Shown: positions 11,445-52,338, counted from the first letter of the stretch. The stretch: DNA of 64,000 nucleotides from a candidate division WOR-3 bacterium (GCA_024277525.1 JAJRUZ010000008.1:20091-84090); one strand, 5' to 3'. Notes: generated from the sequence alone by a model not told the origin. Program-made: numbers and translations.

Positions 11445-11720
11445 ATGCGCGGAAAAAGGAAGGAACTTATCGGTGCGGTTGTTTCAAACAAGATGGATAA
11501 AACCGTCGTTGTGCTTGTTGAACGACGGGTTCGTCATCCATTGTATAAAAAGGAAATAAAAAAGAGGAAAAAATTTTATGCCCATGATGAAAATAATGAA
11601 TGCAGAATAGGTGATATTGTGCGAATAATGGAAACACGCCCCCTTTCAAAGCTCAAAAGATGGAGAGTTGTGGAAATATTAAAAAGGGCTCCGGGTTTTA
11701 GTGAGGAAAAAGAGAAATGA
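11445..11720 (+). CDS. rpsQ: 30S ribosomal protein S17.
   Basis: 91-aa protein with the conserved S17 core ([24 protein letters not shown]); first gene of the cluster. Confidence 0.9.
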
Positions 11721-12085: not shown

Positions 12086-12405
12086 TGGCTGCTAAGATTA
12101 AAAAAGGAGACCAGGTAATGGTGATTTCGGGTGATGATAAAGGGAAAATAGGAAAAGTTATAAAGGTCTTTCCGAAGAACCAAAGGGCTATTGTTGAAGG
12201 AGTCAATATTGTGAAAAGGCACAGAAGATTTGTAAGTGCTGACAGACCTCACGGAATAATTGAAATGCCTGCTCCTGTTCACATTTCAAACCTTGCTCTT
12301 GTTTGTCCGTCTTGTGGGAAAAGGACAAGGGTCGGGTTCAGATTCGAAGGAGATAAAAAAGTGAGATATTGTAAAAAATGCAATGACACGATAGATAAGG
12401 ATTGA
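12085..12405 (+). CDS. rplX: 50S ribosomal protein L24 with a C-terminal zinc-ribbon (CPSCG...CKKC) extension.
   Basis: [11 protein letters not shown]... KOW domain; the ATG overlaps the rplN TGA. Confidence 0.9.
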   Translation: MAAKIKKGDQVMVISGDDKGKIGKVIKVFPKNQRAIVEGVNIVKRHRRFVSADRPHGIIEMPAPVHISNLALVCPSCGKRTRVGFRFEGDKKVRYCKKCNDTIDKD

Positions 12406-12406
12406 T

Positions 12407-12976
12407 ATGGCGAGATTGCTTGAACATTATAAGAAAAATGTAATTCCGAAATTAATGAAAGAATTTAAATATAAAAATCCGTTTGAGGTCCCTAAAATAG
12501 AGAAAGTGGTTGTAAATGTAGGATACGGTGAAGCGGTAAATGATCCGAAATTAATAGAACTTGTTCAAAAAGAACTTGCTCAGATTACAGGACAATGGCC
12601 TTGTATAAGAAGGGCAAGAAAGCATGTTGCTGCATATAAGGTAAGAAAAGGAATGCCCATCGGTGTGAAGGTTACATTGAGGGGAAAAAGGGCTTACGAA
12701 TTCCTTGACAGAACAATAACATTTGCACTTCCGAGGGTAAGGGACTTCAGGGGATTAAAAAGAAATTCTTTTGATGGAAGAGGGAATTATAATTTCGGAC
12801 TCGAAGAACATATTGTTTTTCCGGAGGTGGATATAGATAAAGTGAAAGTTCAGTTCGGGATGGACATAGCAGTTGTAACTACTGCAAAAACCGATTATGA
12901 AGCATTAAGGTTACTTGAAGAACTCGGATTTCCGTTTGAAAGAAAAAAGGAGGTGAAAAGTGGCAAGAAAAGGTAA
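12407..12976 (+). CDS. rplE: 50S ribosomal protein L5.
   Basis: 189-aa protein with conserved L5 motifs ([29 protein letters not shown]). Confidence 0.95.
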
Positions 12977-13148
12977 ATTTATGAGATGGTTAATGTATGA
13001 ACCGAAATTTAAGGTCAGGTACAGGAACAGATGTAAGAGATGCGGAAGACCCAGGGGTTATATAAGGAAATTCGGTTTGTGCAGGATATGTTTCAGAGAA
13101 CTCGCTGTTCAGGGTTTGATTCCCGGTGTTAAAAAGGCAAGCTGGTAA
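12960..13148 (+). CDS. rpsZ: 30S ribosomal protein S14 type Z (zinc-binding); GTG start.
   Basis: 61 aa: [25 protein letters not shown]...GVKKASW. Confidence 0.9.
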
Positions 13149-13149
13149 A

Positions 13150-13545
13150 ATGGTAAATGATCCTATAGCGGACATGCTCATAAGAATAAAAAATGCTGTA
13201 ATGAGAAGAAAAGAGGAAGTTAAAGTACCCCATTCAAAGTTAAAAGAAAGAATTGCCCAGATTTTAAAGGATGAAGGATTTATTGAGGAATATAAAATTG
13301 CGGGAGAAGGTGTGAAAAAGGAAATAGTAATTCTTCCCAAGTACGACAATGAAGGGAATCCTGTTTTAACGGATGTAAGAAGGGTTTCAAAGCCGGGAAG
13401 AAGGATATATGTCAAAAAAGATAAAATTCCTTGGGTTAAAAACGGTACGGGAATTGCAATTATTTCCACCTCAAAGGGTGTTGTTACCGACAGGGAGGCA
13501 AGAAGATTAAAAGTGGGCGGTGAAGTCTTATGTGAGGTATGGTAA
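13150..13545 (+). CDS. rpsH: 30S ribosomal protein S8.
   Basis: MVNDPIADMLIRIKNA...; the internal start at 13150 fits better than the ORF-track start at 13126. Confidence 0.9.
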   Translation: MVNDPIADMLIRIKNAVMRRKEEVKVPHSKLKERIAQILKDEGFIEEYKIAGEGVKKEIVILPKYDNEGNPVLTDVRRVSKPGRRIYVKKDKIPWVKNGTGIAIISTSKGVVTDREARRLKVGGEVLCEVW

Positions 13546-13546
13546 A

Positions 13547-14098
13547 ATGAGTAAAATCGGCAAAAAACCGGTTTTGATTCCCGAGGGTGTAAATATAAGG
13601 CTTGAAGGGAGGAAACTGATCGTAAAAGGACCGAAAGGAGAACTTTCCCTTGAAATTCATCCTGAAATAGAACTTGAAATAGATGAAAAAGAAATAAGGG
13701 TTAAGAGAAAAAGTGATGAAAAGTTTGTCAGGGCAATGCACGGCACAACCAGATCCCTTATTAACAACATGATTAAAGGAGTAAAAGAGGGTTTTTACAA
13801 AGAGCTTCTTGTGGTGGGTACGGGATATAAGGCTGATTTAAGGGGAAGGGAGCTTATTCTTGATGTAGGGTATGCCGAACCTAAGAAATATATTTTGCCG
13901 GAGGGTATAAAGGCTGAGGTGAAAAAGGAAGGAGCAAATTTCAAAATCAGAATTGAGGGAATTGATAAGCAAAAAGTTGGACAAGTTGCTGCTGAGATAA
14001 GAAAAATCAGGGAGCCTGATTTATATAAAGGAAAAGGTATAAGATATGCTGATGAAGTGATTAAATTAAAACCGGGTAAAGCAGGAGTGGCAAAATAA
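13547..14098 (+). CDS. rplF: 50S ribosomal protein L6.
   Basis: [21 protein letters not shown]...; the start is internal to the listed ORF. Confidence 0.9.
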
Positions 14099-14475
14099 TG
14101 GAAAGGGAAGAAAAAGTATTAAGGAGAAAAAGAAGGCGTTTGAGAGTAAGAAAAAAGGTATTCGGAACACCTGACAGACCACGACTTTGTGTATATAAAT
14201 CTTTGAAGCACATATATGCACAAATTGTGATAGACCCCCCGCTCGGTCCTTGTAAGGTTCTAACAGGTGCTTCTACCCTTTCCCCTGAAATCAGAAATGA
14301 GGTCAAAAGATTAAAAGGGAAAATAGAGAAGGCAAAACTTGTAGGGAGATTAATAGCAGAAAAGGCTTTAAAATTAGGGATAAAAAAAGTGGTCTTTGAC
14401 AGAGCAGGATATAAGTATCACGGAAGAGTAAAGGCTTTGGCAGAGGGAGCAAGGGAGAAAGGACTTGAATTTTGA
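14098..14475 (+). CDS. rplR: 50S ribosomal protein L18.
   Basis: 125-aa protein with a basic N-terminus ([12 protein letters not shown]) and the conserved L18 C-terminus ([22 protein letters not shown]). Confidence 0.9.
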
Positions 14476-15620
14476 GAATATCTCTAATCTCACAGAATTT
14501 TGATAAATATTCAAATGGTGAATCGCGGACAAATTACGAAATAGCAAAATATCTCCTTTCAAAAGGGCATGAGGTGCATATTTACGCATATAAAATTGAA
14601 AAGGAACTCTTTGAAAAAGGCTCTAAAATTTACAAAGTACCTTTAATAATAGAAAGACCCGCTATTTTAAAAAGCATCATTTTTTTTCTATGGGTATCTT
14701 TGATTATAAGAATGAAAAAGAATAAATATGACATAATATATCAATCCGGACCATCGGCATTTGTATCTCATAATTTAAATGTGTGTCAGTTTTGCCATTC
14801 AGCATACAGAAAAAAAATATTGAAATTTAAATTTCCCATCCTAAGAAAAATTTATTATTACATTAATTATACAGTAGCATCTTTCATGGAAAAGATCGTT
14901 TATAAGAAAGCCAAAATAATAGTTGCTGTTTCAGAAAAAATAAAAAAAGAACTTATCAAGTACGTAAAAATAAAAAAAGATAGGATCGTAATAATACATA
15001 ACGGAGTGGATATTGAAAAGTTTACTCCCAAAAAAGCAAATGAAAAGTCGGTATTATGCAAAAAATTAAACATAAATGAGAATAAAAAAATATTTTTATT
15101 TGTAGGAGACTTGAATTCTCCGAGAAAAGGATTTTTAAATTTGATTAAGGTGTTTGAAGATTTGGAGGAAAATTGCATTTTATTAGCTCTGGGAAAATAT
15201 GAAAGGGGTATTTTTCATAAATTAGTGGAAAAAAAGAATTTAAAAAGAAAAATTATTTTTCTCGGTTTTCAAAAAGATACCCCCTTTTTTTACAGATCAG
15301 CAGATTTTATGATATTTCCTACTTTTTATGACCCTTGTCCGCTTGTTGTTATGGAATCTCTTGCAAGCGGTACCCCCTGTATTGTATCACATTCACGATA
15401 CTGCGGCAGCACCGAAATTATAGAAGACAAAAAAGAAGGCTTTATAATAAAAAATCCTCATAATATAGAAGAAATAAAAGAAAAAATTAATTATGCAATA
15501 ACTTTAAACAAGAGAGAATATTTAAAGATGTGCTTTAATGCCCGTAAAAAAGCTGAAAATTTTTCTTGGAATAAAATCATCGAAAAATATTACAAAACAT
15601 TGTTATCAAGAAAATGTTAA
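14472..15620 (+). CDS. Glycosyltransferase family 4 (GT-B). TTG start overlapping the rplR stop (TTGA).
   Basis: The N-terminus resembles GT4 ([10 protein letters not shown]...[24 protein letters not shown]). The C-terminal EX7E-type region reads [22 protein letters not shown]. Confidence 0.8.
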
Positions 15621-21432: not shown

Positions 21433-22794
21433 ATGGAACTTTTTATTTTTATATTTATAAATTTCCTTCTTTATTTCTCCTGCGTAAAAGTAATCAATTT
21501 TATCAAAAAAGACATAAGTTTTGCAGATAATTTAATTTCCGCATTTTTATTTCATCTTTTCTCCTTATTTTTCATTTTTTCAATTTTCGGATACTTGCAT
21601 CTTATAGATTTTAAATTTCTTCTGCTTTTTTATTTTATGTTCATTGTGATTTACTCCCTCATAGGGGGAAATGTAAAAAAGGGATACAGGGAAATATTTT
21701 TAAGATTTGTAGAAAAATTTAAAGAATTTATTAAAATTTTAAAAGAAAACCCCTACTTAAATTTAATCTTTATTCTTTTTCTTATTCAATTAATTTTTAT
21801 TTTAAGGTTTATTTTTCTATATCCTCCTCAGGGCTGGGACAGTTATGCTTATCATCTTCCTGTTGCTTCAAGGATAGTTATAGAAAAAGGGATGCCTTCT
21901 TTTGATAATTTTTTAAAAGCACACACCTTTTTCATGTTTCCTAAGAATATAGAATACATTTTTTCTCTTTATTATATTTTCATAGGTTCTGACAAAGGAA
22001 TGATGATAATTCACATTCCTTTTTTAATTTTTGGGATAATCGCATGTTATTCAATATTAAGAAAATTAGGAGCAAGTAAAGAGAGGTCCCTTTTTGTTTT
22101 TTGTCTTTTATTTACACCTATTATCCCTCAACAATTAGGGGTTGCATATGTAGACATAGAAGTTAACATGATGTTTATAATATTTATGAATTTTGCTTTA
22201 ATTGAAAACCCGTACTTTACTCTTTTTTCTCTTATTGCCCTTTCCATAGGTGCTGGGATAAAATTAAGTATCTTTCCTTTTTTTATAATTTATTTATTTG
22301 TTTCAATTATAAAATTTATAAGAAGAAGAAAAATAATTTTTTTAATCCTTTCTTTTATAATAATATATATAACCTCAACTCATTATTATTTGTTTAATTA
22401 TATAAAAACCGGGAATCCTTTTTATCCCCTAAAGATTAACATTTTCGGATTTGAGATATTTGAAGGAAAAATAAATCCTTTTACAATAGACCCTCGTTTC
22501 TGGATTTTTAATCCTTTTTTTATTATTAAAAAATGGCTGGAGTTTCCTTACGGTAACGTGAGCATTTATAAACATGATAATTTATCTGCTGGGTTTGGGC
22601 ATCTTTTTATTTCTTTTTCCTTTCTTTCATTATTTTTAAATTTGATCTCTTTGAAAAAAAATAAAAATTGGAAAAAATTTTATTTTTTTTTTAATATACT
22701 TTTTAACAATGCCTTACAAATGGTATTCAAGATTTATCATATATATTCCATTTTTATCTTTCATATGTTTTATATATCTATGGGAAATACTTAA
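21433..22794 (+). CDS. Polytopic membrane protein, likely a GT-C-type (ArnT/PMT-like) glycosyltransferase, N-terminal portion. The reading frame appears to shift at a poly-T tract near 22683-22692.
   Basis: More than 10 TM helices with a loop motif (YPPQGWDSYAYHLP). The ORF continues in the +1 frame as 22709..23209 after a T(~10) run. Confidence 0.5.
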   Translation: MELFIFIFINFLLYFSCVKVINFIKKDISFADNLISAFLFHLFSLFFIFSIFGYLHLIDFKFLLLFYFMFIVIYSLIGGNVKKGYREIFLRFVEKFKEFIKILKENPYLNLIFILFLIQLIFILRFIFLYPPQGWDSYAYHLPVASRIVIEKGMPSFDNFLKAHTFFMFPKNIEYIFSLYYIFIGSDKGMMIIHIPFLIFGIIACYSILRKLGASKERSLFVFCLLFTPIIPQQLGVAYVDIEVNMMFIIFMNFALIENPYFTLFSLIALSIGAGIKLSIFPFFIIYLFVSIIKFIRRRKIIFLILSFIIIYITSTHYYLFNYIKTGNPFYPLKINIFGFEIFEGKINPFTIDPRFWIFNPFFIIKKWLEFPYGNVSIYKHDNLSAGFGHLFISFSFLSLFLNLISLKKNKNWKKFYFFFNILFNNALQMVFKIYHIYSIFIFHMFYISMGNT

Positions 22795-23209
22795 ACAGAA
22801 AAATATTGCTCCTTTAATTCTGTTTTTATCTCTTCTTTCACTTTTTGAAGGTCTAAACAATCGTTTTTCACCTTATCCTTTTTCTGATTTTTTTACTTAC
22901 AAAGAAAATACCTTCTCTGTAACCCTGCCTAAGAGGTCCCTTTATTCATTCTCCCAACTCTCTTTTTATTTAAAAGAAAACGATACTTTATGTATTTACT
23001 TCACAGATTGGAAGAAAAAGAAAAATTTTGATTATATCGTTGTATTAAACGGAGGACTCTTGAGAAGAAGTTTCAGAATCAGATATGACTTTATTGATGA
23101 TTCAAGATATAAACTCTACAAAAAAATTATCTCCTCTGTTTACGATACTTTTCCGGGTTACAGAGTAGTTTATTCTGATAAAAACTGCATTTTATGGATT
23201 AAAAAATGA
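22709..23209 (+). CDS. Probable C-terminal (periplasmic) portion of the same GT-C-like protein after a frameshift.
   Basis: This frame is open from about 22655. It encodes a further TM segment and then a soluble domain. It overlaps the previous ORF by 85 nt. Confidence 0.4.
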   Translation: MPYKWYSRFIIYIPFLSFICFIYLWEILKQKNIAPLILFLSLLSLFEGLNNRFSPYPFSDFFTYKENTFSVTLPKRSLYSFSQLSFYLKENDTLCIYFTDWKKKKNFDYIVVLNGGLLRRSFRIRYDFIDDSRYKLYKKIISSVYDTFPGYRVVYSDKNCILWIKK

Positions 23210-27997: not shown

Positions 27998-28134
27998 GTT
28001 TGACAGCCATTTATTCTAAATACTGAGAGGGTGTTTGAATAAGAGAAGTTGACATAAGATTCTTTAAAATCGAGATAAAAACCTCTATCGGATTTAAAAG
28101 AAGCAGGATGGGCAAAAAGACAGCAGGGTTATTA

Positions 28135-28250
28135 TGTTTATTGAGTTTACCAGTGTCCTTGTGTTAATCGTGTTTATTGGGTTTGTCGGGTTTATTGTGT
28201 TCTTCGCGTTTGTTGGGATTAATTGCGTTCATTGAGTTTAAAAATTTATT
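28135..28250 (+). repeat. Tandem array of degenerate 9-bp units (TTTATTGGG, TTTGTCGGG, TTTATTGTG, TTCTTCGCG, TTTGTTGGG, ...), about 12 units.
   Basis: Direct reading shows a strict 9-nt period with G at unit positions 7 and 9. Confidence 0.8.
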
Positions 28251-28261
28251 TTACGCGATGA

Positions 28262-28548
28262 ATCATCGCTACAAATCAGATAGGAGGGAAAATAAATCTT
28301 TGATGATATAAACTCCAGATAATCAGAGAATCTATCATTCATTTTTATCCTGTCAAGGAAACTCTTTAAAACATACATTCCCTTTTTCAATCTTATAACC
28401 TTTCCACTTTTCTCCAGCCTTGATAAAGCAATTTTAAGATAATAATTTCTTATCCCAGTATCTCCAGATTTTTCTTTGAAAAATAGGGCAAATCTTTAAC
28501 ACAATCAATTATTTCATCCACAATACTTTTAAAATCTTCATTTCTCAT
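28262..28548 (-). pseudogene. Decayed AbiEi-like (type IV TA antitoxin, wHTH) gene remnant with multiple frame breaks.
   Basis: Hand translation gives MRNEDFKSIVDEIIDCVKDLPYFSKKNLEILG, a stop, IRNYYLKIALSRLEKSGKVIRLKKGMYVL, and further breaks. This resembles the AbiEi N-terminal domain (...L..LG.s...lsrL.kkGkl.rl.rGvY..). No intact ORF exists. Confidence 0.35.
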
Positions 28549-28600
28549 GGTATACAAATATTGTATACTATTGGAAATCAATTTTCAAGTTTCCTTTTAA

Positions 28601-28632
28601 TTGGGTTTTTTGCGTTCATTGTGCTTGTTGGG
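28601..28632 (+). repeat. Short copy of the 9-bp repeat family (TTTTTTGCG TTCATTGTG CTTGTTGGG).
   Basis: Direct reading. Confidence 0.6.
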
Positions 28633-28648
28633 TAGAAACTCCCCTTTC
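28630..28648. other. Hairpin CCCCTTT-cttta-AAAGGGG, followed by GGGGCAGGGGA.
   Basis: Perfect 7-bp stem. Confidence 0.5.
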
Positions 28649-28753
28649 TTTAAAAGGGGGCAGGGGATGTTTAAATTCTCTTGAACTAAAGTCATTTTTT
28701 ATTACACTCTAAGGGTGTAATTAGAGTTAGGGGTCTTCAGAAATTACAACAGT

Positions 28754-28963
28754 TTATTTACTTGTGGTGGGTATAATTATATTAAGTTCTCCTGTGGGAA
28801 TGAGATTATGTAAAGAAGCATTTAAAAACTCTATACTTACTGGCTCACCTTTTTCATTATAACTAACAATTACACCTCCAGGTTCTTCAATAGCATCTAC
28901 GGGTGGATCATCTTTAAATACAATCATTAAAACATCTGACTCGGGATCATACTTTATTTTCAT
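28754..28963 (-). CDS. DUF2283-family protein (predicted antitoxin partner of DUF4258).
   Basis: MKIKYDPESDVLMIVFKDD...GVIVSYNEKGEPVSIEFLNAS matches the DUF2283 pattern (MKI.YD.e.D.lyI...). Confidence 0.7.
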   Translation of the reverse strand: MKIKYDPESDVLMIVFKDDPPVDAIEEPGGVIVSYNEKGEPVSIEFLNASLHNLIPTGELNIIIPTTSK

Positions 28964-28964
28964 A

Positions 28965-29222
28965 TCATTCCTCCTTAAAGTATTTTTTAATTTTGGTAGT
29001 ATAATAAAAAGTTATTATTTTTTTCTCATTTCCTGAAGATGTGAATATTACCCTTAATAGCCCTTTAGTCCACTTTTTCTGAGCTATTACAGTATTCATA
29101 TCACCTGCCACTACTTGAGCAGGATTTTTAAGCACATTTTCTACAATTTCTTTTGTAATTCCCATTTTTTTCTCCCATTCTTTTTGGCGTTCTTTCGCAT
29201 GTTTGGCCCATATAATTTTCAC
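28965..29222 (-). CDS. DUF4258-family protein (predicted toxin of the DUF4258/DUF2283 pair).
   Basis: 85 aa, MKIIWAKHAKERQKEW...; separated from the DUF2283 gene by 1 nt. Confidence 0.6.
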   Translation of the reverse strand: MKIIWAKHAKERQKEWEKKMGITKEIVENVLKNPAQVVAGDMNTVIAQKKWTKGLLRVIFTSSGNEKKIITFYYTTKIKKYFKEE

Positions 29223-29291
29223 TCAAAATATTATATTCCTTCAAGTCAAATTTTTCAAATATATTCAAATTGCAATTTTTATACTTCTGAG

Positions 29292-29450
29292 GTGTTTATC
29301 GCGTTTTTTTGCGTTTGTCGCGTTTGTTGGGTTTATAAATATGCGGGACGAGCGGGACGGGCGGGAAAAGCGAGAGGGGTTTGTTGCGCTTTTCGGGCTT
29401 ATCGTGTTCATTGGGTTTTTCGTGTTTATTGGGTTTTTTGCGTTGATTAT
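29292..29450 (+). repeat. Composite repeat element. A left arm of 9-mers (TTTATCGCG, TTTTTTTGCG, TTTGTCGCG, TTTGTTGGG) is followed by a TTTATAAATAT core. Then come four GCGRGANNN units (GCGGGACGA, GCGGGACGG, GCGGGAAAA, GCGAGAGGG), a right arm of 7 units (GTTTGTTGCG...TTTTTTGCG) and a TTGATTAT terminus.
   Basis: Direct reading. The layout is the same as the copies at 29587, 47062 and 49372. Confidence 0.85.
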
Positions 29451-29586
29451 ATTCTGTTTAAGCTCCATTTACAGTTTATCTTCCTTTAAATAATAAAAGC
29501 TGGCATAGAGCTCTTAAAAAGATTTTGAAATCTAAATAAAGGCTTCTGTTTTTAACATAATAAAGGTCATATTCCTGTCTATATAT

Positions 29587-29664
29587 GTCTATTGCGTTTA
29601 TAAATAGGCGAGAAAAGCGAGAAAGGCGGGAAACGCGAGACGCGTCTATTGCGTTTTTCATTTG
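29587..29664 (+). repeat. Compact copy of the same element: GTCTATTGCG, TTTATAAATAG, GCGAGAAAA, GCGAGAAAG, GCGGGAAAC, GCGAGACGC, GTCTATTGCG.
   Basis: Direct reading; it abuts the 3' end of the wecA-like gene. Confidence 0.85.
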
Positions 29665-43077: not shown

Positions 43078-44316
43078 TTATCTCTTACAGTACCATTTTT
43101 TTACAAACTCCTTATATTCCCTATCACTCTCCCTCACCTTCCTCCACCACCATTCATTCTCCACATACCATTTAACCGTCCTCTCAATTCTATCCTCCAA
43201 CCCCCAACCCCTAACCCCTAATTCCGAATCCCCAACCCCTAACCCCAATTCCCTAATTTTACTATCATCAATACTATATCTCCTATCATGCCCCGGTCTA
43301 TCTTTTACAAATTTTATCAAAGATTCGGGTTTTCCTAAAATTTTTAAAATCATTTTTACAATTTCTATATTTTCTCTTTCATTTCTTCCTGAAATATTAT
43401 AAACTTCACCTATTTCTCCTTTTTCTATAACTAAATCAACTCCTCTGGCACAGTCTTCAACATATAACCAATCTCTTTTTTGTCTGCCGTCTCCGTATAC
43501 GGGTAATGGTTTATTATTTAAGGCATTTATGGTCATCAAAGGAATTAATTTTTCGGGATATTGATAGGGACCAAAATTGTTGGATGGTCTGATGATTATG
43601 ACAGGAACTTTATAAGTATTGTAATATGCAGAACACAACCTGTCTGCTGCTGCTTTACTTGCTGAATACGGATTTTTAGGATTTATAGGGTCTGTTTCTT
43701 TAAAACTTACACCTTCAGGAGCAGGTCCGTAAACTTCATCGGTTGAAATATGGATGAATTTCCACACATTTTTATTTTTTCTTAAAGATTCAAGAAGAAC
43801 ATAAATTCCGTATACATCGGTTTTTATAAATGCATCAGCCTTTATTATTGACCTGTCAACATGAGTTTCAGCAGCATAATGAACAATTACATCTGATAAA
43901 CTGAAAAGAATATCCGTAACCTCTCGGTCCATAATATTTCCTATTACAAAAATTAACCTTTCTTCCTGAAGTAAATCCTGAACAACATCTTTTAAATCGG
44001 ATAATTTAACAAAATTTACTTTATAACCTTCTGTTTTTAATTTTATTCTTTCAAAATCTTCATTTAAGTTTTCTATTTTTACTTTTGTCTCTTTATCCTC
44101 AAAAATTCTTTTAACATTTAAAATAGTTTCCTGTTCGAGGGGAAATATTATGTTATCTTCATTTAAATAATCTTTTAAATTATCCAGATTTCCGGCATAG
44201 GTTAAAATATCAAGAACTATTATTTTATCGTTTGAATTTTTTAATTTATACCTTACAAATTCGCTACCCATAAAACCGGCACCACCGGTGACTAACAGGG
44301 TATAAGATGTGTTCAT
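43078..44316 (-). CDS. rfbB: dTDP-glucose 4,6-dehydratase with a ~60-aa insertion and a repeat-derived C-terminal insert.
   Basis: TGGAGFMGS Rossmann motif, catalytic YxxxK (YSASKAA), and the C-terminal WY..N.WW motif. Confidence 0.85.
   Translation of the reverse strand: MNTSYTLLVTGGAGFMGSEFVRYKLKNSNDKIIVLDILTYAGNLDNLKDYLNEDNIIFPLEQETILNVKRIFEDKETKVKIENLNEDFERIKLKTEGYKVNFVKLSDLKDVVQDLLQEERLIFVIGNIMDREVTDILFSLSDVIVHYAAETHVDRSIIKADAFIKTDVYGIYVLLESLRKNKNVWKFIHISTDEVYGPAPEGVSFKETDPINPKNPYSASKAAADRLCSAYYNTYKVPVIIIRPSNNFGPYQYPEKLIPLMTINALNNKPLPVYGDGRQKRDWLYVEDCARGVDLVIEKGEIGEVYNISGRNERENIEIVKMILKILGKPESLIKFVKDRPGHDRRYSIDDSKIRELGLGVGDSELGVRGWGLEDRIERTVKWYVENEWWWRKVRESDREYKEFVKKWYCKR
43186..43262. 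repeat. G-rich (sense strand) in-frame tandem duplication GAATT(G/A)GGGTTAGGGGTTGGGG inside rfbB; G-quadruplex-prone.
   Basis: Direct reading; it encodes ELGLGVGDS-ELGVRGWGL in place of the usual ELGW. Confidence 0.7.
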
Positions 44317-45383: not shown

Positions 45384-45564
45384 TTTGTTTTCTCCTTAAA
45401 TAAAATACTACATCAAATATATTTATATTTTTATCCTAACACTTCCTTTCTCCTCTCCAAAAACTCCTCCCTATCATACAATATCCTAAATCCTGCTCCC
45501 TTAAGCCATAATGTATATTTTAAATTCTCAAGGGTTTTCTCTATTACATAAATATTATTTTTTC

Positions 45565-45747
45565 TTGATTTTATTTTAAAATTCTTCTTCTTTTTGTCAC
45601 TATTACAAGATAAAGTTCACCGTTTCTGGTGTCATTATATTTTTATAAATGTTCCGAAGGCTGCAAGGGAAATGAGATTTTTTCCATAGGTTGAAACAAC
45701 CTTCTTTTTTATTTGATTGAGTATGTTAGTTTTTTTCTTGGTTTTTA
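45565..45747 (-). pseudogene. Frameshifted paralog of the MNT-like mini-protein encoded at 49497..49793.
   Basis: Hand translation gives MKNLKTKKKTNILNQIKKKVVSTYGKNLISLAAFGTFIKI, a stop, then NDTRNGELYLVIVTKRRR in another frame. Compare IKKKIVSIYGDDLVSLVAFGPSIRTNFEEKEVYLVIVTK in the intact copy. Confidence 0.4.
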
Positions 45748-45998
45748 AGTTTTTCATGGGTTTTAATTAATTTGTTTTGATCTTATTATTAAATATAAAA
45801 TTTCCCATTTCGCATTCCGAATTCCGAATTTTCCTTTTCACCATTTTATCAATCCCCCTTTATCCCCCTTTTCTAAGCTGAGATCACCCATGATTTTTCC
45901 TAATAAATCACTGTATTACTTGTATAAAATTAAAAATGAAGTTATAATTCAGTCTTTAAAAAGATATTGTTAAATTGTCACATAAATGCGACCGCTAC

Positions 45999-46057
45999 AA
46001 TAATCAATCTTTTCTCGCTTTTCTTGCCCGTCGCGCCTTACCACACATCTCGCGGTG
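45999..46057 (-). repeat. Repeat-element copy in reverse orientation: GCGAGATGT..GCGCGACGG GCAAGAAAA GCGAGAAAA GATTGATTATTG.
   Basis: The reverse complement of 45999-46057 matches the GCGAGA-array plus GATTGATTAT terminus of the family. It lies immediately 3' of the HEPN gene. Confidence 0.7.
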
Positions 46058-46489
46058 TTATCCAATCTCCAAAATCTCCTTCACTTTTACAGAGAATTTT
46101 TCGGCGGACTTGAGCAGTTCTTCTGCTCCTGTTTCTGACCATTCATCATAATAATCTGCATTTTCCCTTAAAGTTTTTGCACGCTGAAAACTCTCCACCA
46201 AGTTTAAGTCCAGCTTACCTTTTTCCACATATAAAGCCCTTAATGCCACCATTAAACAATAATGGCTTTTTTCTCTATAATTCTCAGCATAAATAAGTGC
46301 TCTTGCAAAATGAAACATGGCATAATAAGCCTGAATTGTTGCCCATTTGAATTTTTTTCTTTTAAAAGAATCCTTCGCATCTTCAAGGTCTTTTAATCCT
46401 ATGTTGTATTCTTTTTCCACAAGATATTTTCCTCTTGAAAATTCTCTTAATTTTCTTTTCTTTAAACATTTTTCAAATTCAGGATTCAT
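46058..46489 (-). CDS. HEPN-domain protein (toxin of the HEPN/MNT pair).
   Basis: 143-aa all-helical protein overlapping the 3' end of the nucleotidyltransferase gene by 11 nt. Confidence 0.6.
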   Translation of the reverse strand: MNPEFEKCLKKRKLREFSRGKYLVEKEYNIGLKDLEDAKDSFKRKKFKWATIQAYYAMFHFARALIYAENYREKSHYCLMVALRALYVEKGKLDLNLVESFQRAKTLRENADYYDEWSETGAEELLKSAEKFSVKVKEILEIG

Positions 46490-47033
46490 GAGAGTTCCAC
46501 AGGGTGATACCGTTTTCTATTTCCCTGTAAAAAACAGGGTCTTTTTTCTTTATTTCCATAAATCCAATCTCGGTAACTAATATGGGCTTGATTTTTTTAC
46601 TTGAATTTATAGTTTTTTTAATTTTCGGAATCACATCCTTATTTCTTGCAATTATCACAAGGTCAATATCACTGTCTTTCCAGTTTTCTCCTCTGGATGC
46701 ACTTCCGAAAAGCGTTATTCTTATGGAATATTTTTTTATTTTTTGAACCAGGGGAAGAATATTAATTATGTTCTTTAAAACTTTTATCTGCTTAATTATA
46801 ATGTGATTGTAACTCAATGAGTATAAAAAAATACCTCCTTTTTTTCTCCTGGTGATTAACCCGTATTTACACAATTTTCTGAGAGCATAATTAATCGCTG
46901 ATTTTGAGAGTTTGATTTTTTTTCTTATTTCCTTTTCCGTAAATTCTGTTTCCGGATAATCTATAACATACTCAAGGACTCTTTGAACCGAAGTGGCAAA
47001 TACTATATTCTTCATTTCCAAAAAATTGGACAT
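46479..47033 (-). CDS. Minimal nucleotidyltransferase (MNT) with an N-terminal wHTH; antitoxin partner of the HEPN protein.
   Basis: Pol-beta NTase motif LFGSASRGENWKDSDIDLVII. Confidence 0.75.
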   Translation of the reverse strand: MSNFLEMKNIVFATSVQRVLEYVIDYPETEFTEKEIRKKIKLSKSAINYALRKLCKYGLITRRKKGGIFLYSLSYNHIIIKQIKVLKNIINILPLVQKIKKYSIRITLFGSASRGENWKDSDIDLVIIARNKDVIPKIKKTINSSKKIKPILVTEIGFMEIKKKDPVFYREIENGITLWNSHES

Positions 47034-47061
47034 CTATCCATTATAATGGAAAGTCATAAAA

Positions 47062-47180
47062 ATAATCAATGATTGAGTTTATAAATATGCGAGGCGGGCG
47101 AGACGAGTTTATTGGGTTTATCGGGTTTATAGAGTTTATTGGGTTTGTTGCGTTAATTGCGTTTGCTGTGTTCATTGAGA
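47062..47180 (+). repeat. Repeat element: AATCAATGATTGAG, TTTATAAATAT, GCGAGGCGG, GCGAGACGA, then 9-mers GTTTATTGG, GTTTATCGG, GTTTATAGA, GTTTATTGG, GTTTGTTGCG, TTAATTGCG, TTTGCTGTG, TTCATTGAG.
   Basis: Direct reading. Its AATCAA end (reverse complement TTGATT) together with the palindrome CCATTATAATGG (47038-47049) forms a -35/-10-like pair for the MNT-HEPN operon on the minus strand. Confidence 0.8.
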
Positions 47181-47221
47181 ACATATACGATGGGTTGTAT
47201 GAATGCATTTTGTTTCTTTAA

Positions 47222-47426
47222 ATATATTTATTGAATTCTTCAGGTGATATCTGTGCCTGTTTTAAAATGCCTCTTAAAGTTCCTGTTTTTAATTCTTTAT
47301 GAAGTGGAACAACACAACCCCTTTTCTCATTACCACATGACTGCCTCTTTGTCTTACTTTTTTAAATCCCATTCTCTGTAAAATTTTTATTACTTCTTCT
47401 CCTGAAAGTTCCCTAAGTTTTGACAT
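47222..47426 (-). pseudogene. hicA: hicA-like toxin gene with a frameshift in an A/G homopolymer region.
   Basis: Hand translation gives MSKLRELSGEEVIKILQRMGFKKVRQRGSHVVMRKG, then out-of-frame VVPLHKELKTGTLRGILKQAQISPEEFNKYI. Both halves match HicA, but no intact ORF of 60 aa or more is present. Confidence 0.45.
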
Positions 47427-47625
47427 CTATTTCAAAGGTGGTAATAAGGGGACGTCCTACTTCAGGATGTCCGAATTCTTCCAGATAAAGTTCTGTTGCT
47501 TCTTTTAAATTATTGATTGTTTCCTCTATGGTATAACCCTGACTCACTGTTCCAACTTCCGGACACTCGGCAACCCACATGTCTTCTTCTTTATAAACTA
47601 CTGCTGTAAATGTTTTTGTTTTCAT
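47413..47625 (-). CDS. hicB: HicB-family antitoxin (UPF0150).
   Basis: 70 aa, MKTKTFTAVVYKEEDMWVAECPEVGTVSQGYTIEETINNLKEATELYLEE. Confidence 0.65.
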   Translation of the reverse strand: MKTKTFTAVVYKEEDMWVAECPEVGTVSQGYTIEETINNLKEATELYLEEFGHPEVGRPLITTFEIDVKT

Positions 47626-47652
47626 AATTTTTATATTACACTCCCTTTAATT

Positions 47653-47669
47653 GTGAATGCAATATTCAC
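47653..47669. promoter_or_regulatory. Palindrome GTGAAT-gcaat-ATTCAC about 28 nt upstream of hicB; candidate operator.
   Basis: Perfect 6-bp inverted repeat read directly. Confidence 0.35.
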
Positions 47670-47757
47670 GCTTTACCACACATCTCACAATTTTATCAAT
47701 CAACGCAATAATCCCGACAAACACAACAAACGCGATAAACACGACTCGCATTTTTAA
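47660..47757 (-). repeat. Repeat-element copy in reverse orientation. The reverse complement reads TTGATTAAAAATGCGAGTCGTGTTTATCGCGTTTGTTGTGTTTGTCGGGATTATTGCGTTGATTGA.
   Basis: Direct reading; it shares TTACCACACATCTC with the copy at 46036. Confidence 0.7.
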
Positions 47758-47773
47758 TCAATCCCCCTTAATC

Positions 47774-47801
47774 CCCCTTCGCCAAAGGGGAGAATTTTTT
47801 T
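47774..47801 (+). terminator. Hairpin CCCCTT-cgcca-AAGGGG followed by AGAATTTTTTT (intrinsic-terminator-like, plus strand). It is part of a 34-nt exact duplicate of 49318-49351.
   Basis: Stem, loop and T-tract read directly. Confidence 0.45.
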
Positions 47802-47846
47802 ATTTCCTTTTTCACCGTAAACCCATCCACTCACCGTTTTGCTTTC

Positions 47847-47890
47847 CTCCTTTCTCGCCTTTCTCGCATTACCACCCGTCTCGCATTTTA
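47847..47890 (-). repeat. GCGAGA-array module in reverse orientation (reverse complement: AAAATGCGAGACGGGTGGTAATGCGAGAAAGGCGAGAAAGG); it supplies the last codons (MRDGW, stop) of the DUF4143 ORF.
   Basis: Direct reading. Confidence 0.7.
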
Positions 47891-49153
47891 ACCCATTTCC
47901 AGAAAGGTAATACTCTGCAGGTTATACCTTCTTTTTTTTCTTCATATTCCTGATCACGGGTTATTATTATTCCTGATTTTAGGTTTAAAAATTTACAGGC
48001 TTTTATAAGCCCTTCTATCTCCCTTTTTTTATTTTCTGAATTTATCTCCCATGTGACCTGGATTGCCTGCAATTTGCCATTATTTTTAACCACAAAATCG
48101 CATTCGCCATCTTTATTAAAATAGTATATCTCATATCCTTTTCTTTTCAGTTCAAGAAAAACCACATTTTCCAGCAACCTGCCGTAATCTTCGGATTTGA
48201 CTCTTTTTGCAAGACCTGTATCAACAAGATAAATTTTTGGGTGGATTCCTCATTCTTTTATAGGAAGATTCGGAAAAAATCCTGCTTTCGTATACGAGCA
48301 TGCTTTCAAGAAAATATCTGTAGTAGGAAAAAAGGGAATCTTTTGAAAAAGGGAATTTACCTTTATATTTTTTATAGAAAGAAATAAGGGAAAATCGGGA
48401 TGAAAAGGAGGAGAAAAGGTTCTCCTGCAGGGTTTTCAGCAGGGTTATATTTGTTATATTGAATCTTTCCACAAGGTCTTTGAAGAACATTGCATCAAGA
48501 TATTGGCTTAAAATCTTTTTTCTCATGAATTTTTCTTCAATAAAAGAGACCTCAGGGAAACCACCCCATTCAAGATACTCATTAATATAAGCTTTTAAAA
48601 TTGACTTTTTTCTCCCATAAATCTCTTTTGTTTCAAATTTTTTTGCTCTTAGAAATTCGGTGAAGGAAAAGGGGTAAACCTCATATGTCCATGCCCTTCC
48701 CCTTAAAGAAGCATGTATTCTGGAAGGAGTTATCTCCGAAGAGGAACCTGCAACATAAACATCTATGTTCTCCCTTTCAACCAGTCTCCTGACAAATTTT
48801 TCCCATCCCTTTATATTCTGTATTTCATCAAATAGAAAAATTACTTTTTTTTCTTTAACAAGGCGGGAATTGAGTTCAAAGAAAATATCCTTGATTTTTT
48901 CAAGGTCATCCAGGGTTATTCCCTCAAGTCTTTCATCTTCAAAATCTATATAAAGGGCTTTTTCAGGATTTTTTTTAAATACACTGTAAAGCACAAATGT
49001 TTTGCCACTCCTTCTGACTCCATAAATGACTTTAACTTTTTTGAGTTTTTGAGGGAAAACAATACCTTCCCTCTCTATTATATTTTTTATTTCATTATTT
49101 ATAAATTCTCTGCCCGTAAGTATTATTTCTTTTATTGTATCAGAACTGACCAT
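47869..49153 (-). pseudogene. COG1373-type AAA ATPase (AAA_14 plus DUF4143) split by a frameshift into 48221..49153 and 47869..48177.
   Basis: The N-terminal ORF has a Walker A (GVRRSGKT) and Walker B (VIFLFDEIQ). The C-terminal ORF is a DUF4143-like domain. The two are in different frames. Confidence 0.6.
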
Positions 49154-49217
49154 TTTATTTTGTCCTTTTCAGAAGTATATTTTAAAGAATTTTTGTCCTT
49201 TTTTCAAGGAAAATTTT

Positions 49218-49462
49218 GGTTTATAAAAAGGCGAGACTGGCGAGAAAAGTTATTTTCATATCTTTTATTTTTTCCTTTCTTGCGTTTCTCGCATTACAAC
49301 CCGTCTCGCAGTTTATTCAATCCCCCTTAATCCCCCTTCGCCAAAGGGGAATTTGTGCGATAAATCGCACCGCAACATAATCAATCTTTTCTCGCTTTTC
49401 GCGCACGTCTCGCCTTTCTCGCATACTTGTAACACGATAAACACGATAAATACGTTAACATG
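49218..49462. repeat. Cluster of repeat modules in mixed orientation. Forward GGTTTATAAAAAG, GCGAGACTG, GCGAGAAAAG (49218-49249). Reverse GCGAGA module (49276-49312). Hairpin duplicate (49318-49351). Palindrome GTGCGAT-aa-ATCGCAC (49354-49369). Reverse full element (49372-49462).
   Basis: Direct reading. The reverse complement of 49372-49462 reads ...TTTATCGTG TTTATCGTG TTACAAGTAT GCGAGAAAG GCGAGACGT GCGCGAAAA GCGAGAAAA GATTGATTATGTT. Confidence 0.8.
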
Positions 49463-49496
49463 TTTCACGGTTTTTGCTCTCACACTCTTCCGGTTT

Positions 49497-49793
49497 TCAC
49501 CATTTTTTTATTATGTCCTCAAAAAATTTGTCCTTGTCATAAAGAATTTTTAACTCCGCACCTTTGAGCCACAAATTTTTTATTTTAATGGATTCCGGCT
49601 CTTTATGGATGGTAAATATTTTATAAGGAGAAAAATTCAACTCCGCCTTTTTTTCACTGTTCTTTGTCACAATAACTAAGTAAACTTCTTTTTCTTCAAA
49701 ATTTGTCCTTATGGAAGGACCGAATGCAACAAGAGATACTAAGTCATCTCCGTATATAGAGACAATCTTCTTTTTTATTTTATCCAGCACCAA
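49497..49793 (-). CDS. Small MNT-like protein with a degenerate, probably inactive nucleotidyltransferase motif.
   Basis: LVSLVAFGPSIRTNFEEKEVYLVIV aligns to the hGSxxRG...DhDhhV NTase motif but lacks the catalytic residues. A decayed paralog lies at 45565-45747. Confidence 0.4.
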   Translation of the reverse strand: MVLDKIKKKIVSIYGDDLVSLVAFGPSIRTNFEEKEVYLVIVTKNSEKKAELNFSPYKIFTIHKEPESIKIKNLWLKGAELKILYDKDKFFEDIIKKW

Positions 49794-49860
49794 ACCCTTA
49801 TTACCTTTTTTTTCTTATAAAAACCGACATTTTTCATCAATTTACCTCCGATTTAATATT

Positions 49861-52338
49861 TCATTCTTTTCCATAATATTTTGAATAATATTTGTAATAA
49901 TAGTAATAATAATGGCTCCCCCTTTTCTTAGGAACCGCATTTATAACAACTCCTATGATATCGGATTTTGAAGACAATAAAATATCCCTTGCTTCCTCCA
50001 CTTCTTTAAAGTTTGTTTTTCCGTATCTTATTGTGAGAATTACACCATCCGCATAATTTGCAATATAAGCAGAATCCGCAAATAAAAGAACAGGAGTCCC
50101 GTCAATTATTACATAATCATATTCCTCTTTTAAATCCTTAATTAATTTTTTCATTTTTTCTGATTCAAGGAAAATTAAAGGATTTGCAGGAATTTTCCCA
50201 ACAGGTATCACATCTATTTTTATATCAAGCTTATCATTATGATGAGAAACATCCGTTATTGCATTTTCAATTTTTTCCTCCCCTGTTAATATGTCAAAAA
50301 GACCGGCTTCCTTTTTTATTTCAAAAATATCGGTTATATGTCCTTTTTTCTTTCTGAAATCACTGTCAATAACAATTACTTTATTTCCTTTTGAGGCATA
50401 AACAAATCCGAGATTTAACGCTACAAAGGTTTTTCCTTCTTCAGGACTCGGTGAAGTGACATAAATTACTTTGTATTTTTTATCAGGATGTGCAAATTCA
50501 AGATTTATTGAAAGCTTTCTGAAAGCCTCAAACTCCGCTGAAGAAAGGTCAGGTTCGATTATTTTTAATTCGGAACTCAAACTGTTCTTTTTAAAAATTT
50601 TACTAAAAAATCCATTCCGGTTATTTTCAATTAAAGGTATTGAGGTGTAAACAGGAAGCCCTGTTTTTAATTTTAAGATTTCAGGGTCTTTAACTGTATT
50701 ATCAATATATTCTACAATAAAAACCGTAAATCCACCTATCAATATGCTGATTATAAAAGAAAGAATAAGAATCAAAAGGGGCTTTCTTGCATTCACAGGT
50801 CTGTATGAAACAAGGGGAGGGTTTATAATTTTTAAGTCCGAAGTAACACCTGCCTCCTGTACCCTTGTCTCTTCAAGCTTCTAGGCAAAAAAGGTGTATA
50901 ATTTTTCCGTTGTCTCTCTATCCCTTTCAAGTCTTGCAAGCTGTAACTCATCCTCGGGAACATTTTCCAATTTAAGCTTTAAAGCGCTTATTTGACTTTT
51001 AACACTCTGGATTTCTGTTTTTATTGTTGATATTCTTTTTGTTATTTCTTCTTTCATCTGTTCTCTTAAGCCTTCAAGTTTTGCCTTTACCTCATAAACT
51101 TTCGGATGATTAGGAGAATAGGATTTTAATCTGCCTTTAAGTTCTGCCTCTGTTTGTAATAATTGAGAGTAAAAATTCTGAAGAACCGGATCCGAAAGAA
51201 GCGCAGGAGCAAAGTTAACGGTTGTGTCAAGTTCCTTTCCCTTTGCAAGATACTCTCCCAAATTTTTTAAAATACTCTGCTCAATCTCGAGTTGACTTTT
51301 TTTTGTTTCAAGACTCGAAATTTGGGAAATTAATGCCTGAGTAGAAGCTTTTAAATCCGCTATTTTTTTCTGCTCTTTAAAAGTCTTTATTTTTTCTTCC
51401 AGTTCAGAAAGTTTATTTTTATAAAATTCGAGTTGGGACTCGATGAATTTTCTGGACTGAATGTATTGAAGGGATTTTTCTTTTATATCTTCTTTGATTA
51501 TTAAGTCGGAAAGCACCTTTGCTATCTCATAAGCATCCTGAGGATTTCCCCAGAAAACATCTATTCTTAAAATCCCGAGAAGATTAACCCCCGGAAAGAT
51601 TGTTTTTGCAGTTACAAGCTTTTTTGAGGCTCCTTCTCCTGAAAAAGGAACACCTCCGAGTGCAGGCTCTTTTTCTATTTTATCAGCCTCCAAAACCTTT
51701 ATTGAGAGAGAATTTCTCAAAGCAAGGGCTATTCTGTCTCTGGGATAAAATGTTATGGTATAAGTTCTCTCTTTAAACTCTTTCTTTAAAGGAATTACCT
51801 TGAACTTCAAAAAGCCGATATCAAGAGATTCACCAATTTTGCCATCCAGAACCTTCTTACCATCACTTGTAAAAAGCTCCACACTATTATTTGATATTTT
51901 TAATTTAAAAGGACCGACGGGGTTCTCAAAATCCCTTATAATTTTTGTTTTTATCTTTATATCAGGCAATCCATCTTTTATATGGGTATAAAGTGAAAGG
52001 GAATCCGCAATTTTTTGAGCAAGCCTGACACTCAGGAGGTTTGATATAACTCTTTGTGTCACAGAACCGATTTGAAGGGTGGGAGTCTCCTGAACCGGTG
52101 AAAAAACACCTTCAATGGGTTTTTCATTTGAAACCCCTATGTCAAAGGTTGCCTTATAAATGGGAGTATAAGGTTTTAGAAATTGATAGAGGAGTATTAT
52201 AAAAAATGTAACCACTGCGGTTGTAATAAAAAGCCCCAGCCTTCTCAGGAATATGTTTATTATATCGTTTAAACTCAAAGTTTCTTCTTCATATGAATTT
52301 TGAAAATAAATATGATTTTTGATTTTACCTTCTTTCAT
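49861..52338 (-). pseudogene. wzc: Wzc/GumC-type polysaccharide co-polymerase fused to a BY-kinase. It has a single in-frame TAG (50881-50883) between the periplasmic/coiled-coil domain (50881..52338) and the TM2 plus kinase part (49861..50796).
   Basis: The same reading frame holds across the stop. The 28 codons between the ORFs encode the conserved pre-TM2 motif (DLKIINPPLVSYRPV). The kinase has Walker A (SPSPEEGKT) and a C-terminal Tyr cluster, YYYYYYKYYSKYY. Confidence 0.6.

Follow-up and report, generated by a model that had tools for sequence, protein, structure and literature searches.

Gene content of the slot

The window analyzed here is a stretch of 64,000 nucleotides (nt) of DNA (GCA_024277525.1 JAJRUZ010000008.1:20091-84090) from an uncultured hot-spring bacterium of candidate division WOR-3. 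At positions 45431-49860 (~4.4 kb) it contains an accessory slot for toxin–antitoxin (TA) and candidate defence modules, located inside a polysaccharide locus (wza-wzc...rmlA-rmlB-flippase). The slot carries five modules which are all encoded on the minus strand, the same strand as the neighbouring polysaccharide genes. In the order of transcription, it consists of an open reading frame (ORF) of 98 amino acids (aa), an ATPase gene in two pieces, hicB, a truncated hicA, a gene for a minimal nucleotidyltransferase (MNT) fused to a winged helix-turn-helix (wHTH) domain, a HEPN gene and a broken copy of the 98-aa gene. The genes of the slot and its two flanks are as follows.

49861-50796, minus: kinase half of wzc, flanking gene (ORF and profile search)
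49804-49837, minus: candidate for the former start of the 98-aa gene, now displaced (out-of-frame ATG at 49837; A8 run at 49806-49813)
49497-49793, minus: orphan degenerate minimal nucleotidyltransferase of 98 aa, intact ORF (profile, fold and alignment)
47869-49153, minus: PDC-S01/COG1373 ATPase (AAA_14, DUF4143 and nuclease-like C-terminus), pseudogene as sequenced
47413-47625, minus: hicB-like antitoxin gene, intact, 70 aa (weak profile matches and orthology to contigs L007 and L008)
47218-47426, minus: hicA toxin pseudogene (7-nt deletion at ~47319/47320)
46479-47033, minus: wHTH-fused MNT, putative antitoxin and regulator, intact (Polbeta 1.6e-11, NTP_transf_2 1.4e-9, HTH_27/MarR)
46058-46489, minus: HEPN-T gene (PF05168, AF0298/UPF0332-like), putative RNase toxin, intact (PF05168 6.3e-16)
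45431-45757, minus: second degenerate MNT paralog, pseudogene as sequenced (three-frame translation and DNA alignment with contig L001)
44319-45383, minus: rmlA_long, flanking gene (TIGR01208 3.6e-145)

Near relatives of single genes were identified in JGI, ENA, NCBI and Logan (SRA-run) metagenome assemblies and are referred to by their contigs (L001, L007, etc.). When the HEPN, rmlA and P0001 proteins of the window were looked up exactly in the contig index, no record was returned; a cluster look-up then gave close relatives.

The wHTH-MNT/HEPN pair is likely the only functional module in the island because its two overlapping ORFs are intact, evolve with a low ratio of nonsynonymous to synonymous substitution rates (dN/dS) and match both components of the PDC-M05 system, and because the MNT retains the GS...DSDID motif. 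The MNT gene is located upstream of the HEPN gene on the same strand with an 11-nt overlap, which is the gene order of type VII TA systems, and the two neighbouring genes match the PADLOC models PDC-M05A for the nucleotidyltransferase (NTase; 3.7e-18) and PDC-M05B for the HEPN protein (5.1e-9). The wHTH-MNT protein contains a catalytic G[SG]...DxD motif (FGSASRGENWKDSDIDL in translation), displays a weak match below the model cut-off to the MntA model of NCBIfam (2.4e-8) and is 89% identical to a protein encoded on contig L009 (dN/dS 0.14). A comparison with L009 indicates that the true start is probably the second ATG at 47015 and not the first in-frame ATG at 47033; a promoter-like sequence (TTGATT-18-TATAAT, 47069-47040) ends 6 nt before the first ATG. 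The HEPN protein is 94% identical to its L009 counterpart (dN/dS 0.085) and its nearest match in the PDB is AF0298 (2hsb, 1.2e-7). Its domain is PF05168 and not PF01934 (HepT/DUF86), and its motif LRENADY reads as R-x4-Y (R-ENAD-Y), preceded by an upstream REKSH (Rx3H). The HEPN-T class lacks the histidine of the motif and an alternative N-terminal His or active site has been proposed for it (Anantharaman et al., PMC3710099).

The position of the MNT gene upstream of an overlapping HEPN gene and the retained GS...DxD motif resemble the type VII HepT/MntA system. However, the HEPN protein belongs to the PF05168/AF0298 class with R-x4-Y and not to the DUF86 HepT class for which AMPylation has been shown, and the MNT carries an N-terminal winged-helix domain. 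Thermophiles and archaea are rich in MNT-HEPN pairs (PMC3710099, PMC12988326). Judged from its family, the HEPN-T protein would act as an RNase toxin which the co-translated upstream MNT would neutralize by binding and/or nucleotidylylation, possibly of a C-terminal tyrosine, as in type VII HepT/MntA. The wHTH domain might repress or autoregulate its own operon, and the outcome would be addiction or abortive-infection behaviour.

The upstream neighbour of this pair is a hicBA module that retains only its antitoxin gene. The Pfam scores of the HicB protein are all under the gathering thresholds (DUF7387 22.2 bits, UPF0150 17.0 bits, HicB_lk 16.4 bits), but the protein is 91% identical (dN/dS 0.04) to the HicB that adjoins an intact 71-aa HicA in L007 and L008, and this orthology to the partner of an intact toxin supports the HicB assignment. 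A DNA alignment shows that the hicA gene lacks 7 nt (AGACAGA) relative to these two independent contigs. As sequenced (ORF 47289-47426), HicA covers only positions 1-27 of the 58 positions of the HicA_toxin domain (PF07927), whereas the gene stitched across the deletion covers all 58 (1-58/58, 1.2e-18). The module resembles HicAB type II TA systems in the 14-nt overlap between hicB and hicA, the HicA_toxin domain and the near-identical intact pair in L007 and L008, and differs from them in the 7-nt deletion within the toxin gene and in the short (70 aa), sub-threshold HicB. With HicA lost, HicB remains as an orphan antitoxin. Orphan antitoxins are a common end state in the decay of TA systems.

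The ~60 nt located 5' of hicB, including the first codons (47605-47666), show 92% identity to the sequence ahead of a gene pair encoding a small antitoxin and PemK in L007 (matching L007 positions 8-69 and 856-912), and a -10-like TAATAT ends 7 nt ahead of the hicB ATG. Because the leader is shared with a different TA pair and the TAATAT is positioned so close to the start codon, the data suggest a shared promoter module, possibly giving rise to leaderless transcripts.

The ATPase gene is present as two ORFs, one of 310 aa (48221-49153, AAA_14 3.2e-35) and one of 102 aa that encodes the C-terminal piece of DUF4143 in another frame (47869-48177). The lesion is one surplus A in the run at 48234-48238. 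Removal of this A restores a protein of 427 aa in which Pfam detects AAA_14 and a DUF4143 match over positions 2-159/160, and which matches the PADLOC model PDC-S01 with 1.2e-98 over profile positions 9-407/412. Intact homologs of 424-433 aa align with 99-100% of the repaired protein, including across the sequence '...RMRNPPKIYLVDTGL...', and 3901 homologs were identified at E<=1e-30. PDC-S01 proteins combine the AAA_14 and DUF4143 ATPase with a PD-(D/E)xK-like domain. The repaired protein fits the PDC-S01 model end to end, and homologs of ~428 aa occur in many phyla; unlike other PDC-S01 genes, which encode a single polypeptide of ~425 aa, the window gene is split by a +1 frameshift. By descent it belongs to PDC-S01, and the copy sequenced here is a pseudogene. 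The A5 site was considered by eye as a place of programmed frameshifting or slippage, and this idea was set aside, given that the run is short, that no known stimulatory context was seen and that the following zero-frame codon AAT looks ordinary for an AT-rich sequence. A promoter-like sequence (TTGAAA-17-TAAAAT, 49207-49179) is located ahead of the gene.

The two ends of the slot are occupied by members of a small family of MNT-like proteins. Neither the 98-aa protein nor its paralog has a Pfam or NCBIfam match. The 98-aa protein displays a weak match to PDC-S09 (3.9e-4) and reciprocal profile matches to two PF01909 proteins (2-3e-4), and its predicted fold is that of a Pol-beta-like NTase. 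In a joint alignment, all five family members carry FGP or FGT opposite FGS and E-[VL]-Y opposite D-[VI]-D, so that neither part of the catalytic motif is present, and compared with the two PF01909 proteins (P0015 and P0016) the family lacks the helical insert found between their strands 2 and 3. The family keeps the N-terminal helix, the 'hhhFG' strand and the C-terminal 'KILYD+DGFF' motif of MNTs. It is rare: three clusters were found among 5.8 billion proteins, no relative among the GTDB species representatives, and two loci in JGI metagenomes (L001 and the short contig L091). When 1.84 billion cluster representatives were searched with a profile, one representative of the family was recovered together with P0015 and P0016 (E 2-3e-4) as the only remote matches; these two are genuine NTP_transf_2 proteins with GS and DxD, each directly followed by an overlapping PF05168 HEPN gene. 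Because the only remote relatives are catalytic and paired with HEPN, the MNT-like proteins are most likely what is left of MNT antitoxins after the loss of catalysis and of the HEPN partner. The family thus resembles minimal NTases (PF01909/PF18765, PDC-S09, MntA) in its predicted fold, its shared motifs and its nearest relatives, and differs from them in having GP/GT for GS and E-x-Y for DxD, no HEPN partner and an occurrence on few hot-spring contigs only.

The 98-aa gene is under purifying selection, as judged from its comparison with L001 (proportion of nonsynonymous differences pN 0.21; proportion of synonymous differences pS saturated at 0.78), and the paralog was so until recently (dN/dS 0.22 for the repaired gene). 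The dead NTases might be retained as binding or regulatory proteins. Relative to its intact 106-aa ortholog in L001, the paralog carries a +1 A shift at 45640-45644 and a -1 A shift at 45591-45595, and positions 45456-45877, which reach into conserved sequence 5' of the paralog, show 85% identity to L001. The original prediction, made from the sequence of the window, had described this frameshifted paralog, which is real but longer than claimed and interrupted twice. A three-frame translation of the region 5' of the 98-aa gene contains MKNVGFYKKKK in frame 0, which resembles the MK.LK..KK N-termini of homologs; loss of an original N-terminus of this gene at the A8 run is possible but uncertain.

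The contexts of P0015 and P0016 also place TA genes next to polysaccharide genes: L092 encodes a DUF4143 ATPase, a Polbeta/HepT pair, WecG and an epimerase, and in L095 the MNT/HEPN and ParE genes are located between two fragments of Polysacc_synt. Because catalytic MNT and PF05168 HEPN pairs are found among polysaccharide genes in these two unrelated contigs, TA modules lodged in glycan loci seem to recur.

The original prediction had reported an accessory island of TA and defence genes on the minus strand of one polysaccharide locus, with an intact wHTH-MNT/HEPN pair, HicB beside a frameshifted HicA, a frameshift-split COG1373 ATPase and a 98-aa MNT-like protein without catalytic residues, and each of these elements was recovered here. 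Of the domain assignments that it left to profile searches, HEPN, MNT, HicA and AAA_14/DUF4143 gained support, whereas HicB reached sub-threshold scores only.

Intergenic repeats and probable exchange of modules

The 129-kb contig L001, from a related WOR-3 population, contains the slot at the same position with the order wza, wzc (828 aa, fused), 108-aa gene, ATPase, 106-aa gene and epimerase; its wzc gene is 76% identical in nucleotides to that of the window. The 108-aa and 106-aa proteins are the orthologs of the 98-aa protein and of its broken paralog, respectively, and both genes are intact and occupy the same two positions. The cargo between them differs: the L001 ATPase combines AAA_14 with DUF234, matches PDC-S27 in PADLOC (4.1e-44) and displays no significant BLASTP similarity to the window ATPase. 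A check for the island in related genomes, as suggested in the original prediction, is in the case of L001 positive for the slot and both small genes but not for the cargo. The two small genes of a given genome are 45-51% identical in aa (45% for the window pair) and their best nucleotide match is 25 nt long; on these grounds a recent duplication as well as homologous recombination between them was rejected. The two MNT-like genes are old paralogs that form the conserved brackets of a variable slot, and the combination of an old duplication, conserved positions and different cargo therefore points to a hotspot of cargo exchange. The predicted cassette array that is being built and eroded finds its counterpart in the disruption of genes but not in the construction of an array, given the 45% identity of the paralogs and their intact state at the same positions in L001.

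Single modules of the slot recur with other neighbours. The MNT-HEPN module (46031-47176) is 89% identical in nucleotides to L009, where the downstream neighbour differs, and the hicBA module (47208-47681) is 84% identical to L007 and L008, where it is located between a PemK pair and a PIN pair. For both modules the homology to the other contigs stops inside the intergenic repeats. The known relatives contain no ortholog of the ATPase, as its nearest homolog is only 65% identical. In the short contig L091, a homolog of the 108-aa gene is located just downstream of a PDC-S01-type ATPase. A structured repeat of ~190 nt (...LPNFLPG...PAGVG in translation) precedes the 108-aa gene in L001 (9800-10000) and in L091 (966-1139); the window does not contain this repeat and the spacing between wzc and the 98-aa ORF is only 68 nt.

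In all three known contexts (3/3) the small gene adjoins an AAA_14 ATPase with a nuclease-like C-terminus, and the window and L001 share a conserved stretch of 63 nt 5' of the ATPase gene despite the different ATPases. Both observations could be explained if the dead NTases were functional partners (sensor, regulator or antitoxin-like protein) of the adjacent ATPase-nucleases within a two- or three-gene defence system. Such a system is distinctly unlikely and is no more than a minor rival because the number of contexts is only three, the spacers between the genes are long (~160-340 nt, mosaic in the window and partly in L001) and the ATPases belong to different families. In addition, the small gene differs in order and side from context to context, the window ATPase has its own promoter-like site, and thousands of PDC-S01 homologs compare with a single representative of the small family in 1.84 billion.

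The spacers between the modules of the exchange slot are composed of repeats, which also occur in a second small-gene island of the window.

49154-49496: mosaic spacer with GCGAGAnnn arrays in both orientations (minus at 49387-49422, plus at 49231-49248)
49355-49370: hairpin GTGCGATTTATCGCAC within spacer 49154-49496
49319-49349, 47760-47790 and 45851-45867 (half module): G5 hairpin modules, intergenic
47626-47868: mosaic spacer with a GCGAGA array (47850-47867), GTTTAT-type nonamers (47714-47740) and the hicB leader (47605-47681)
47034-47217: 5' region of MNT-HEPN with a GnGTTTATn array (47107-47178), a TCTCGC...TTTATAAAC module and a promoter-like site
45758-46057: mosaic spacer with GCGAGA-type units (46010-46036) and the conserved upstream region of the paralog
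~45975-46000: GTAG-headed hairpin GTCGCATTTATGTGAC within spacer 45758-46057
28000-29650: second small-gene island between thiC and the first glycosyltransferase gene of the polysaccharide locus
28754-28963: DUF2283 gene (3.3e-16), second island
28965-29222: DUF4258-like gene (weak match), second island

Four kinds of repeat units were distinguished: 9-nt arrays (GCGAGAnnn and GnGTTTATn), the G5 hairpin (CCCCTTTGGCGAAGGGGGATTAAGGGGGATTGA), the GTAG-headed hairpin (GTCGCATTTATGCGAC) and the TCTCGC...TTTATAAAC unit, which is located upstream of promoter-like sequences. Sequences of this promoter-like kind are located 5' of the ATPase, hicB and MNT-HEPN modules at least. The sequence GGGGGATTAAGGGGGATTGA occurs three times with 0 expected and GCGAGAAAGGCGAGA-like sequences occur 11 times with 0.03 expected, and an inverted pair of 23 nt (49227-49249 and 49395-49417) is 87% complementary. 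The inverted repeats between the cassettes that had been predicted are therefore real and far above chance, although they turned out to be mosaics of 9-nt arrays and hairpins and not simple inverted repeats. Within the 64 kb, the motifs are confined to this island and the second one, and they are common to L001, L007, L009 and L091. The second island also holds ORF scraps and nonamer arrays at 28163-28216, 29313-29378 and 29608-29643.

A unit with a GTAG-type head and a 6-bp hairpin, similar to repetitive extragenic palindromic (REP) sequences, was identified at 45975-46000 and 49355-49376 of the window, at 763-785 of L007 and at 1-20 of L009. The hairpin copy GTGCGATTTATCGCAC differs from GTCGCATTTATGCGAC by three changes, each of which is compensated across the stem. 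The hairpins do fold, but their energies are mostly no better than those of shuffled sequences (z -0.4 to -2.4), so that the structural case for the hairpins lies in the compensatory stem variant. Overall, the repeats look most like a lineage-specific mosaic of the type formed by REP sequences and bacterial interspersed mosaic elements (BIME): short palindromic units, one of them with a GTAG-like head reminiscent of REP heads, are mixed with other motifs in both orientations within intergenic regions and show compensated stems. In contrast to REP/BIME, the dominant units are 9-nt tandem arrays that in this window are found only around accessory small-gene modules, and within the 64 kb and the short related contigs no RAYT gene and only 3-4 hairpin copies were seen. 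The repeats may mediate the exchange of modules. A search of the literature on nonamer repeats or WOR-3 TA islands found nothing relevant.

An arrangement of modules in one orientation, separated by repeats and recurring with other neighbours, is also expected for an integron-like cassette array, such as a cluster of attC sites lacking integron-integrases (CALIN), and, like chromosomal integrons, the region includes TA cassettes (see PMC13108822). However, a crude home-made pattern for attC-like R''/R' sites with complementary inner arms found no such site (it found none in the controls either), and no Pfam match to an integrase, transposase or recombinase was present among the tested ORFs of >=90 aa across the 64 kb. 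On these grounds, the absence of attC-like sites and of an integrase in any annotated ORF, the integron idea was rejected. Integron cassettes are expected to be promoterless, whereas promoter-like sites are located upstream of the ATPase and MNT modules. A discrete mobile element (transposon, prophage remnant, or integrative and conjugative element) is also at odds with repeats that consist of 9-nt tandem arrays and short hairpins, with the lack of a tRNA gene and of a GC step, with a blastn search of the island against plasmid and phage collections that returned no similarity, and with scans of viral contigs with two repeat motifs that found none. Both forms of the explanation are highly improbable.

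A stronger version of the exchange slot can be formulated in which the dead NTases and the nonamer/hairpin mosaic constitute a lineage-specific, integrase-free site of cassette exchange. Self-promoted TA and defence modules would be swapped by recombination within the repeats, and the dead NTases would be kept as pseudo-enzyme partners, regulators or decoys for ATPase-nuclease or HEPN effectors. This version is speculative and is given only a small chance of being correct.

Probable gene decay in the slot and the polysaccharide locus

Disrupted genes are not confined to the slot. Two genes of the surrounding polysaccharide locus are interrupted by nonsense codons.

50881-50883, minus: in-frame TAG in wzc (CAG in L001), splitting the gene into ORFs of 485 aa and 311 aa
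35568-35570, minus: in-frame TGA in a wzy-like polymerase gene, the ORF continuing in frame for ~89 codons

The stop codon in wzc falls within the GNVR domain. If the stop codon of the wzy-like gene is read through, the Wzy_C match grows from positions 3-104/149 (25.9 bits) to positions 3-148/149 with 35.3 bits, above the gathering threshold of 31.7 bits. Recoding of TGA or TAG as the source of the in-frame stops was rejected because both serve as ordinary stop codons in the window (TGA 29, TAA 25, TAG 5). Decay had been predicted as a feature of the island, in which several genes are indeed broken, but it is shared by wzc and wzy. Elsewhere the window looks intact, with ~40 kb of core genes, including those for ribosomal proteins, ClpXP, trigger factor, SmpB, ThiC, cyanophycin synthetase, Tad/type II secretion-type proteins and glycosyltransferases.

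The frameshift in the COG1373 gene, both shifts in the paralog and the possible N-terminal shift of the 98-aa gene are all located in A5-A8 runs, and the sequence stems from a 93.9-kb NCBI contig of an uncultured lineage. These observations, together with the mutually compensating shifts of the paralog and the low dN/dS of its repaired form, could indicate that the decay is artefactual: in the cells the genes would be intact, and sequencing or consensus errors in strain-mixed accessory regions of a metagenome-assembled genome (MAG) would have produced the indels and stops. However, homopolymer runs of >=5 nt are frequent in the 54.6 kb of coding sequence outside the island (866 runs) and none of them shows an apparent shift, as compared with 3-4 shifts in the 81 runs of the island. 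Under a uniform error rate per run, the chance that all 3-4 shifts land in the island is ~6e-4 to 5e-5, and this concentration makes uniform homopolymer error unlikely. Furthermore, the hicA lesion is a deletion of 7 nt and the wzc and wzy lesions are base substitutions, and these three are therefore not homopolymer artefacts. An artefactual origin of the decay as a whole is thus unlikely. It is concluded from these comparisons that most of the decay appears to be real, or at least to represent real variants, and that the single-A changes may be consensus errors in a strain-mixed MAG region. The possibility that the frameshifts disappear on resequencing, named in the original prediction, concerns the 3-4 single-A changes; it does not extend to the 7-nt deletion in hicA or to the two nonsense substitutions.

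The disruptions would reflect relaxed selection on accessory DNA in the population, which may extend to wzc and wzy. Because of the two nonsense codons, the polysaccharide locus is probably inactivated, or variable, in the population.

A variable slot and its meaning

Taken as a whole, positions 45431-49860 are best explained as a variable TA/defence slot whose modules are exchanged and decay through relaxed selection; the probability assigned to this explanation is about 0.7. Several points weigh against it. The hotspot is derived from one full-length comparison (L001) and short contigs, with three contexts for the small family, and an empty slot was not found in any relative. Three to four of the disruptions are single-A changes in A5-A8 runs, and the +1 and -1 shifts of the paralog compensate each other ~49 nt apart in a gene with low dN/dS, which also fits a consensus error in a strain-heterogeneous MAG. 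The canonical Rx4-6H motif is absent from the HEPN protein, so that an RNase activity would have to depend on the alternative His of AF0298-type proteins (PMC3710099). Finally, PDC-S01 and PDC-M05 are unvalidated candidate systems (PMC12988326).

The surroundings of the slot show no step in composition: the G+C content of the window is ~30% and that of the island and its flanks ~0.30-0.37, without a change at the island borders. Searches of the whole window for tRNA and tmRNA genes and against Rfam at the gathering threshold gave no match. The assignment of the host is in agreement with ribosomal protein L14, which is 95% identical to the L14 of a candidate division WOR-3 MAG, the next matches being <=74% identical. 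Three further observations were made outside the slot. The ribosomal run at 11445-15620 (S17-L14-L24-L5...S8-L6-L18) continues with a GT4 glycosyltransferase gene (14472-15620) in place of S5/L30/L15/secY. Two same-strand ORFs at 21433-23209 (453 aa and 166 aa) overlap by 86 nt and have no Pfam match. The rmlB-like gene (43078-44316) contains a CCCCAAC-type tandem repeat with a period of 7 nt within its coding region (43199-43254), translated as ...GLGVGDSELGVRGWGLEDR... close to the dehydratase C-terminus; the corresponding region aligns with L004 at 83%.

All components of the island are of known kinds, and the rare part is the pair of dead MNT-like genes that brackets the slot. The case represents a well-documented example of a common pattern, the accumulation and erosion of TA and candidate defence modules in a variable surface-polysaccharide slot, in an uncultured thermophilic phylum (WOR-3) for which there are almost no functional data. 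Three aspects go beyond the ordinary. The first is an orphan family of dead MNT-like proteins that is under purifying selection, is found on a handful of hot-spring contigs and is always located beside ATPase-nuclease defence candidates. The second is a set of lineage-specific 9-nt arrays and hairpins that mark the borders of exchangeable modules. The third is the pair of nonsense codons in wzc and wzy, which suggest that the polysaccharide is being lost or is varying, and we infer that this may be linked to phage pressure, to which such loss is often tied. Current views of such loci would change only if a mechanism of exchange or a function of the dead NTases were demonstrated.

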